28,524 nucleotides of DNA from Escherichia coli (GTDB lineage Bacteria; Pseudomonadota; Gammaproteobacteria; Enterobacterales; Enterobacteriaceae): assembly GCF_003334765.1 (NCBI RefSeq), contig NZ_QOWT01000043.1. The stretch is one strand, 5' to 3'. Shown here in pieces: positions 25,172 through 26,610 of this stretch (the stretch's first letter is position 1; every line of letters starts with the position of its first letter). The notes below the pieces were generated by a model, which was not told where the DNA came from, ran no database searches, and saw only the letters and a program-made list of their open reading frames with translations. Made by a program: the position numbers and the translations under genes.

Positions 25172-25460
25172 GTTTCTATCCTACAAACAGCTTTTAAATT
25201 CTTTTTTATTAAGAACACTATAATCTACTATCATAATATTGATGAACATAGCATAATTATATGACCTAAATACCATAGCTACCGCACAGATGTTTTCGAA
25301 AGTGAAAATATCTGATATAAAGTTATATCTTTGGCAAAAGATTGTATCAATCTCTTGTTATATTCATGGATTCTATATAGTGATACCATAAAAAGAAAGT
25401 GAGCATGTGATACATTTTTGCTGATTAATGATATAACTCTATATAATTTTTCGTATTTAC
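25172..25460 (-). promoter_or_regulatory. AT-rich upstream region of the T6SS operon (putative promoter/regulatory region)
   Basis: About 290 bp of very AT-rich non-coding sequence between the tssB start and the IS630-like element. Several TATAAT-like hexamers. No specific promoter mapped. Confidence 0.3.
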
Positions 25461-26610
25461 TAACTAAATAGCTGCGCGGAATAGTAGGTCACTTTGAGGG
25501 AACTCAGCCCGGATTGTGCGATCTGATCAATCGCCAAAAAGAAAAAATCACCAACCGGACTGAGCGATGCCGATCATAACACCAATCCCCAGAACAGAAC
25601 GACGCCTGATGCAGAAAACTATCCATAAAACAAAGGACAAAAACCACGCCCGGCGGCTCACCGCCATGCTGATGCTGCATCGTGGTGACACCGTCAGTTA
25701 TGTTGCCAGAACGCTCTGCTGTGCCCGTTCATCGATTGGTCGCTGGATTAACTGGTTCACGCTGTCGGGTGTTGAAGGCCTGAAGTCATTGCCGTCAGGA
25801 CGTGGGAGGCGCTGGCCGTTTGAACATATTTGCGCATTGCTGCGTGAGCTGTTAAGCATTCTCCTGGCGATTTAGGTTATCAGCGTTCCCGCTGGAGTAC
25901 CGAACTTCTGGCGATAAAAATCCGTGATGTCACCGGTTGCCCGCTACATGCTCCAACCATCCGGCGATGGTTACCTGCTGCCGGACTGGTATAGCGCAGA
26001 GCCGCGTCGACACCGCGTATCCGTGCCCCCCACAAAGAAGAAAAAATGGCCGCTATTCATGAAACGCTGGCGAAATGCAGTGCGGAAAACCCCGTGTTTT
26101 ACGAAGATGAGTGGATATTCATCTCAACCTGAAAATCGGTGCTGACTGGCAGTTACGCGGGCAGCAAAAGCGCGTTGTCACACCGGGCCAGAATGAAAAG
26201 TATTATCTTGCCGGTGCACTGCACATCGGTACGGGTAAAGTCAGCTACATTGGTGGAAACAGTAAAGGTTCATCCTTATTTATCAGACTGTTAAAACATC
26301 TGAAGGCGTAAAGACGATTACGCTCATTGTCGATAACTACATCATCCACAAAAGCCGTGAAACGTTGCGCTGGCTGAAAGCAAACACGAAGTTCAGGGTG
26401 ATTTATCAACCAGTTTACTCGCCGTGGGTGAATCATGTCGAAGGGTTGTGGCAGTCGCTTCATGAGACAATAACCCGAAATCAGCAGTGCCGTTCAATGT
26501 GGCTGTTGTTGAAAAAGGTTCGTCACTTTATGGATACCGCCAGCCCATTCCCCGGTGGAAAACATGGGCTGGCTAAAGTGTAGTGGCATTAGGATCTGTT
26601 ATTTAGCACG
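25460..26610 (+). mobile_element. IS630-like insertion sequence (about 1.15 kb; ends approximate)
   Basis: Contains an IS630-type transposase reading frame (MPIITPIPRTERRLMQKTIHKTKDKNHARRLTAMLMLHRGD...VIYQPVYSPWVNHVEGLWQSLHETITRNQQC...GGKHGLAKV). Imperfect inverted match between the left end (ctaaatagc... from about 25464) and the right end (about 26594-26608). Confidence 0.7.
25567..26583 (+). pseudogene. IS630-family transposase, multiply frameshifted
   Basis: Recognisable transposase sequence switches frame at least three times (pieces 25567-25875, a segment in another frame about 25870-26110, 26111-26311, 26365-26583). Confidence 0.75.

Follow-up and report, generated by a model that had tools for sequence, protein, structure and literature searches.

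The aai operon of Escherichia coli, which encodes a type VI secretion system (T6SS), sits in the 117-kb pheU pathogenicity island of strain 042 and is under the control of AggR (PMC2808357). Insertion sequence (IS) elements of the IS630 type, for their part, use the TA within 5'-CTAG-3' as their target and duplicate it (Tenzen & Ohtsubo 1991, as cited in PMC2170065). Both are found in the DNA analysed here, a stretch of 28,524 nucleotides of E. coli (assembly GCF_003334765.1, contig NZ_QOWT01000043.1) that is called the window throughout, in which a degenerate IS630-family element adjoins the upstream region of tssB (aaiA), the first gene of the operon. A sequence-only reading of the window had proposed that this element may have displaced native regulatory DNA, or that it could supply outward promoter activity. 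Whether the IS drives or disturbs the regulation of the T6SS can be answered, largely in the negative, through IS-free relatives and published expression data. Most probably, the element is a dead and fixed IS630-family copy that borders the aai module on its upstream side, the operon is driven by an AggR-dependent promoter in native DNA, and the IS is a passenger and a boundary marker which contributes at most a little AggR-independent read-out.

In E. coli 042, RefSeq places tssB, tssC, aaiC/hcp2, tssF, tssG and a Vgr gene on the minus strand, which is the aai (Sci-2) T6SS operon, and the window locus is 100% identical to the aai T6SS of the pheU island of E. coli 042, O104:H4 and 55989. Positions 25400-26700 find matches of at least 99% identity in 45 complete E. 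coli genomes, including 042, 55989 and the O104:H4 outbreak strains. Between the start codon of tssB at 25171 and the IS lies a region (25172-25463) that is AT-rich, as the sequence-only reading had described it, with a GC content of 0.27-0.33. The features of this part of the locus are as follows:

24695-25171, minus strand: tssB/aaiA, with which the aai T6SS operon begins (annotated for E. coli 042 in RefSeq; list of open reading frames)
25380-25388, minus strand: extended -10 TGgTATCAC of the aaiA promoter (hexamer 25385-25380), 23 bp from the AggR site (PMC6392122 Table 2)
25409-25419, minus strand: AggR-binding site AAAAATGTATC of the aaiA promoter (PMC6392122 Table 2, mapped onto the window)
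25420-25463: AT-rich non-IS DNA of 44 bp, from the AggR box to the left junction of the IS; clear homology to IS-free relatives ends at about 25432-25434 (alignment; the blastn match of 25200-25466 stops at query 233-234)

The aaiA promoter is given by Yasir et al. 2019 (PMC6392122, Table 2) as ...CAGCAAAAATGTATCACATGCTCACTTTCTTTTTATGGTATCACTATATAG..., and its AggR site fits the WWWWWWWTATC consensus, 23 bp upstream of the extended -10 and 237 bp from the start codon. The locus therefore displays what defines an AggR-dependent promoter, namely the WWWWWWWTATC motif 21-23 bp upstream of a -10 hexamer together with AggR-dependent activity, the latter being taken from PMC6392122. In that work, RNA-seq of an aggR mutant gave a log2 fold change of -4.41 for the aaiA mRNA (about 21-fold lower), and of -3 to -4.1 for aaiB to aaiH. 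The whole promoter is located in non-IS DNA; from the upstream edge of the AggR box it is another 47 bp to the start of the IS body.

A sensitive search with 25200-25466 retrieved three related T6SS loci that can be aligned through the promoter. The first of them resides on plasmid pWP9-S17-ESBL-11_1 (L010; 85% identity) and has no IS630 at the site, while the other two are on the chromosomes of strains SCU-105 and B1-56 (L011 and L012; 81% identity) and have the end of an ISEc22 element (IS66 family) at the same place. All three share 81-85% identity with the window over 25200-25432, AggR box and -10 included; they carry the AggR-type box AAAAATATATC, a 22-bp spacer and the -10 TATCTT, and differ from the window at a few promoter positions. 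The sequence-only reading had asked for a comparison with IS-free orthologous loci, and in this comparison the promoter layout of AggR box, spacer and -10 is kept. It had also held that its case would fall with a promoter that lies wholly within 25172-25460 and is unchanged relative to IS-free loci, which is largely what was found, the mapping being by mutation and deletion, and a few promoter positions differing. As the promoter is outside the IS and kept without IS630, and as the loss of aggR has a 21-fold effect, the operon is not driven by a promoter derived from the IS. With the published promoter at 25380-25419, the idea that the element could supply outward promoter activity survives only in a weaker form, as one candidate outward promoter in the left end of the IS. 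In L011 and L012 the ISEc22 is intact (3766-6077 in both), lies on the same strand as tssB and ends a few bases upstream of the AggR-box-type promoter, which indicates that this edge of the module is bordered by a different IS element from one lineage to another.

In more distantly related T6SS loci on plasmids (L006-L009), what is shared with the window is confined to the ATG-proximal 35 bp and a 14-nt box, GTGCGGTAGCTATG. This box (25287-25274, minus strand) belongs to the 5' leader of the AggR-dependent transcript and precedes the tssB ATG by 116 nt, and it is invariant or one base off in 8 of 8 E. coli aai-type tssB upstream regions, chromosomal and plasmid-borne, the surroundings of which have diverged. 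It may serve as a site for a regulator or as an RNA element of the leader; inspection by eye gave no match to a sigma-54 or a standard -35 motif. The box is absent upstream of the TssB orthologues in the other genera examined, which were also rejected as IS-free comparators, being 60-68% identical and having upstream DNA that cannot be aligned. In addition, an extended -10-like TGaTACAAT (25341-25349, minus strand; TGgCATAAT in L010-L012) is present between the AggR promoter and tssB, some 170 nt ahead of the gene, and a perfect TATAAT at 25261-25256 is found just downstream of the invariant box; both are possible candidates for AggR-independent promoters.

The limits of the IS, which had been placed at 25460-26610, were set by alignment with five relatives and with an intact copy on plasmid pCFSAN004179G (L013). 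An IS630-family element is indeed present at that place, and its body is refined to 25467-26603, which puts it 295 bp from the tssB/aaiA ATG, in good agreement with the original estimate of about 300 bp upstream of the operon. The element and its borders comprise the following features:

25464-25466: left junction C-TA, made up of the C of the CTAG target and one of the two TA copies (the similarity shared by all IS630 relatives begins here; the junction of L013 is the same, ...G CTA AATAGCTG...)
25467-26603, plus strand: body of the degenerate IS630-family element, 1137 bp, the intact relatives having 1152 bp (alignments with relatives and L013)
25567-26583, plus strand: transposase pseudogene, with 1 bp deleted after 25849, TGG changed to TAG at 25992-25994, 1 bp deleted after 26109 and 13 bp deleted after 26307 (tblastn pieces in frames 3, 2, 1 and 3; codon walk against the intact coding sequence of L013)
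26604-26606: right junction TA-G, the second TA copy and the G of the CTAG target (alignments with relatives; the sequence of native clbK at this very point is CCTCTAGCGCGGTGCG)
26607-27289, minus strand: what is left of a clbK-like gene (colibactin nonribosomal peptide synthetase/polyketide synthase) that has lost about 675 bp internally (two pieces of clbK are matched, at 90.6% and 88.6% identity)

The flanks, C-TA on one side and TA-G on the other, represent the CTAG/TA target signature of IS630, since the window reads C-TA[IS]TA-G and the uninterrupted clbK has CTAG at the break. At the DNA level, the window copy is 97.7% identical to the intact L013, the closest intact copy, which is carried by large E. 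coli IncF plasmids and has no name beyond 'IS630 family'; the identity is 95.6% to a copy on a pAA plasmid (L002), 90% to an ISSpu2-like copy, 80.9% to ISEc33 and 80.4% to IS630 of S. flexneri. Terminal inverted repeats are present but imperfect when read from the alignments, with CTAAATA common to both ends and scattered matches thereafter, and at seed 7 the repeat search did not report them, as they are too imperfect; those of ISEc33 have 14 perfect bases, and the copy of IS630 proper was out of register and hence uninformative. The three largest fragments of the open reading frame each match the NCBIfam profile NF033545 'IS630 family transposase' (E 2e-10, 6e-7 and 8e-15), at profile positions 1-69, 155-217 and 242-297, as expected for each part, and the transposase of L013 (343 aa) scores 256.7 bits on the same profile, the cut-off of which is 100. 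The Pfam domains of this intact relative are DDE_3 and HTH_32/29/23/33, and by its transposase profile (helix-turn-helix plus DDE) the window element belongs to the IS630 family.

Relative to L013, the transposase gene has exactly three frameshifting deletions, where the sequence-only reading had counted at least three frameshifts, plus one stop, a TGG to TAG nonsense change at codon 143. RefSeq describes 25567-26583 in E. coli 042 as 'IS630 family transposase; frameshifted; internal stop'. The window copy is 15 bp shorter than its intact relatives and non-functional; it lacks the intact transposase of an autonomous element, and its decay leaves it unable to move on its own. With four relatives as outgroup, 17 private substitutions were assigned to the window copy and 2 to L013, and the codons changed with respect to L013 comprise 4 synonymous and 18 non-synonymous ones and 1 stop, which looks like neutral decay of the transposase. 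The tssB upstream region and the IS copy are each found at 99% identity or more in 45 records. When the empty site was reconstructed from both IS flanks and searched in 5,426 E. coli genomes, it gave two separate half-matches, indicative of an occupied site, in exactly 45 records, and a contiguous match in 0 of the 5,426; an exact-match scan of metagenome contigs likewise returned none. Among the complete E. coli genomes with this tssB locus the IS copy is fixed, and the presence in 45 of 45 carriers, the lack of an empty site, the private substitutions and the neutral-looking codon changes all uphold the view that the insertion is old.

Further copies related to the window element occur on plasmids. 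One lies beside aar on pAA plasmids of enteroaggregative E. coli (EAEC) (the L002 copy mentioned above, 1501-2655, pNORD58_1), and shares with the window copy the 1-bp deletion after 26109 and three derived substitutions, hence both EAEC copies probably descend from an already defective common ancestor. A common origin of the promoter flank in the window and of the flanks of these closest IS copies next to aar was considered and rejected, as the flanks are unrelated. On E. coli M3 plasmid A there is a further IS630 copy that has decayed (L007, 5129-6287), about 1.65 kb upstream of a plasmid-borne aai-type tssB; its identity is 88%, its orientation is the same, and its flanks are unrelated to those of the window.

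The borders of the element tell of a different kind of event. The right end of the IS falls exactly at the native CTAG of clbK (...CGCCTCTAGCGCGGTGCGATTGG... in the uninterrupted gene; [IS]...TTATTTAGCACGGTGCGATTGG... in the window), and the left flank is AT-rich T6SS upstream DNA and not the other half of clbK. It follows that the two flanks were formerly not neighbours and that the IS, as the alignments indicate, is a rearrangement joint between the clbK remnant and the T6SS DNA. The remnant, which RefSeq calls a 'beta-ketoacyl synthase N-terminal-like' pseudogene, means that a piece of a pks-type island adjoins the aai T6SS in the pheU island. Directly after it comes a fragment of an IS3-family integrase-core gene (27288-27867, plus strand; a pseudogene in RefSeq), and the DNA upstream of the T6SS operon is a succession of mobile-element and gene remnants.

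A plausible history would begin with an active IS630-type element that inserted at 5'-CTAG-3' sites and duplicated the TA, with one insertion, judged only by the flanks, hitting a clbK-like gene. Afterwards a rearrangement, for which recombination between two IS630 copies or a deletion associated with the IS is the simplest explanation, may have joined this copy to the DNA about 295 bp upstream of tssB. The transposase then decayed through the three frameshifting deletions and the stop that the alignment reveals, and the copy has been inherited with the island in every sequenced carrier. The operon is transcribed from the AggR-dependent promoter in the native AT-rich DNA, the IS adding at most a slight AggR-independent read-out.

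Several points weigh against regarding the IS as a passenger. The proposed order of events, with the clbK insertion preceding the rearrangement, is deduced from the flanks only. The promoter assignment in PMC6392122 goes back to deletion and mutation work (Yasir 2017 thesis), and no 5'-end mapping was found. Homology to the IS-free relatives stops about 31 bp short of the IS, which leaves any former function farther upstream beyond the reach of the comparison. Finally, the aaiA100 promoter fragment, which contains 463 bp of upstream DNA, is strongly induced by AggR and shows higher activity than the empty vector without AggR (PMC6392122); it reaches to about 25634 and thereby holds 168 bp of the IS left end, including a candidate extended -10 that is discussed below. 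Because this fragment, with the IS left end in it, is active above the vector without AggR, there is room for a small IS contribution to basal activity.

Two alternatives concern the nature of the element and what it may have replaced. That the region is a chance resemblance or a domesticated gene and no relic of a mobile element has practically no probability: nothing was found in its favour, and it is refuted by the 97.7% identity to the gene of an intact 343-aa IS630-family transposase with the same ends, by more than 1,300 related IS630 copies in E. coli records, and by the three frameshifts and the stop, which exclude a functional protein. The other alternative is that the IS-associated rearrangement removed native T6SS regulatory DNA, such as an activator site upstream, a divergent gene for a regulator or a region where H-NS nucleates, and left the operon dependent on AggR alone. 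The DNA upstream of 25464 has been replaced, as the IS flanks come from different loci (clbK cut at CTAG, and T6SS DNA), and to this extent the proposed displacement is real; moreover, other plasmid T6SS relatives have 0.4-1.26 kb from tssB to the next annotated feature upstream, which in L007 and L009 is a divergently oriented hypothetical open reading frame. Nevertheless, nothing that is conserved in the IS-free relatives is missing from the window. Homology of L010-L012 with the window ends near 25432-25434 and its breakpoint is thus distinct from the IS junction, L010 diverges from L011 and L012 just upstream of the promoter, in the case of L011 a few bases upstream of that end, and the alignment of the three with the window holds no conserved element upstream of the promoter that the IS might have removed. 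All that is conserved across the aai-type loci of E. coli is still in place: the ATG-proximal 35 bp and GTGCGGTAGCTATG as the invariant box, to which the closer relatives add the AggR box and the -10. A loss of native regulatory DNA through the IS is, in consequence, very improbable.

The remaining alternative makes the left end of the IS an outward transcription unit, which would consist of two features:

25497-25567, minus strand: hairpin antisense to the transposase 5' end and directed outward toward tssB; candidate RNA-OUT-like antisense RNA (Rfam RF00240, folding, relatives)
25573-25581, minus strand: extended -10-like TGtTATGAT, 5 nt upstream of the hairpin start and over transposase codons 3-5; candidate outward promoter (from the sequence only)

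In this scheme, TGtTATGAT (25581-25573) would drive an antisense RNA (25567-25497) of the RNA-OUT/pOUT kind, and transcription that meets no terminator would run through into the aaiA promoter and tssB, giving basal AggR-independent expression or interfering with AggR-dependent initiation. The only match of an Rfam scan was RNA-OUT (RF00240), which starts exactly opposite the transposase ATG and spans the full model length, but its 26.9 bits (E 0.003-0.03) are well under the gathering score of 41; L013 alone also matched, the 7 others of the 8 relatives scanned giving no match to RNA-OUT at E<=10. As the score is below the gathering threshold, homology to RNA-OUT is not claimed. The hairpin has a minimum free energy of -31.6 kcal/mol (z -3.6), and in 11 of 11 relatives the folding energy is -23 to -34 kcal/mol for the minus strand and -13 to -20 for the plus strand, an advantage of 6-17 kcal/mol for the antisense RNA. 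The 17 consensus pairs were counted per strand in 14 left ends, which represent six genera (Escherichia, Shigella, Salmonella, Yersinia, Klebsiella and Aeromonas), and the pair cells amounted to 192 Watson-Crick, 36 G-U and 10 mismatches on the antisense strand and to 192, 4 and 42, respectively, on the sense strand, meaning that positions which are not Watson-Crick are wobble pairs on the former and mismatches on the latter. However, a covariation test on these 14 left ends was not significant, with one compensatory pair, shuffles doing as well and the stems being almost invariant; the support for the hairpin structure comes from strand asymmetry alone.

The promoter of this putative unit is similarly ambiguous. 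Within the part of 25172-25700 that belongs to the IS, the minus strand has no sigma-70-like candidate other than TGtTATGAT, which matches at consensus level and has no -35, and a simple consensus promoter scan of 25100-25800 reported no minus-strand sigma-70 promoter inside the IS. TGnTATGAT is kept in 10 of 14 relatives, but it overlaps the conserved Pro-Ile-Ile codons, so that its conservation is inseparable from coding constraint, which by itself may explain it. The hairpin is not followed by a T-run, in keeping with read-out. Two overlapping weak terminator-like hairpins occur inside the IS at 25635-25659 on the minus strand (scan 2 versus 0.5 in shuffles); they are irrelevant to read-out because they lie upstream of the candidate outward promoter. 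The basal activity of aaiA100, which covers the IS left end and is active above the vector independently of AggR, also fits the scheme, whereas a literature search for an IS630 antisense RNA, or for transcription start site or Northern data on IS630, yielded no relevant report. The 21-fold AggR dependence of aaiA caps any contribution at a few percent of the induced level, even if the RNA exists. That read-out from the IS left end accounts for the role of the element at this locus is therefore unlikely, and the passenger with an AggR-dependent promoter beside it is preferred.

The unit may nevertheless be of interest beyond the aai locus. It is conceivable, although on balance doubtful, that IS630-group elements of Enterobacterales and Aeromonas (IS630, ISEc33, ISSpu2 and the lineage of the window copy) encode a hitherto undescribed RNA-OUT-like antisense RNA, which would be made from an extended -10 in the first transposase codons and would read outward through the left end. 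The same tentative proposal has the unit intact in the dead IS of the aai locus, directed at the AggR-dependent promoter 150 bp away, where it could bring about T6SS transcription at a low level without AggR or influence initiation that depends on AggR. Should the candidate antisense RNA exist, the bacterial branch of the Tc1/mariner superfamily would gain a new example of antisense control, and on enterobacterial plasmids thousands of IS630 copies would be sources of outward transcription.

To conclude, the pseudogene is already in the RefSeq annotation and the AggR regulation through a promoter outside the IS has already been published; what is new is confined to the rearrangement joint with clbK and the candidate RNA-OUT-like unit. 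On its upstream side the aai module ends in a mobile-element joint, with an IS630 copy out of clbK fused to T6SS DNA here and ISEc22 at the same edge elsewhere, which helps to reconstruct how the pheU island was assembled.

Among known systems, the window element most resembles IS630 of Shigella, ISEc33 and ISSpu2, members of the Tc1/mariner superfamily, in its length of about 1.15 kb, its insertion at the TA of CTAG, its imperfect inverted repeats and, as represented by the intact relative, its single 343-aa transposase with helix-turn-helix and DDE_3 domains. It differs from them in being non-functional and in sequence, the DNA identity being only about 80% to IS630 of S. flexneri and to ISEc33, and higher to the ISSpu2-like copy. 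The left end recalls RNA-OUT and pOUT of IS10 in that a long imperfect hairpin with G-U pairs is placed opposite the transposase start codon and directed outward, with a -10 in the first codons. Reportedly, pOUT of IS10 reads out into flanking genes, a finding credited to Simons et al. in 1983. IS10 belongs to a different IS family, though, the Rfam score falls short of the 41 bits noted above, and the unit in the window is known from its sequence alone, so the likeness may be convergent or due to chance.

IS elements that provide outward or hybrid promoters, as treated in a part of the review PMC9330008, are similar to the present case in that an IS end is situated upstream of an operon, a situation that recurs in L011 and L012, where ISEc22 abuts the same promoter. 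The IS630-family case given in that part of the review is ISFtu1, with co-transcription from the transposase promoter; co-transcription of this type is impossible here because the transposase gene points away from tssB. Unlike the IS-provided promoters, aai expression needs AggR and its promoter is outside the IS. The closest counterparts are instead the AggR-dependent promoters of EAEC (PMC6392122), among which the aaiA promoter is listed and whose layout it shares, and it is no part of the IS, from which it lies 47-87 bp away.

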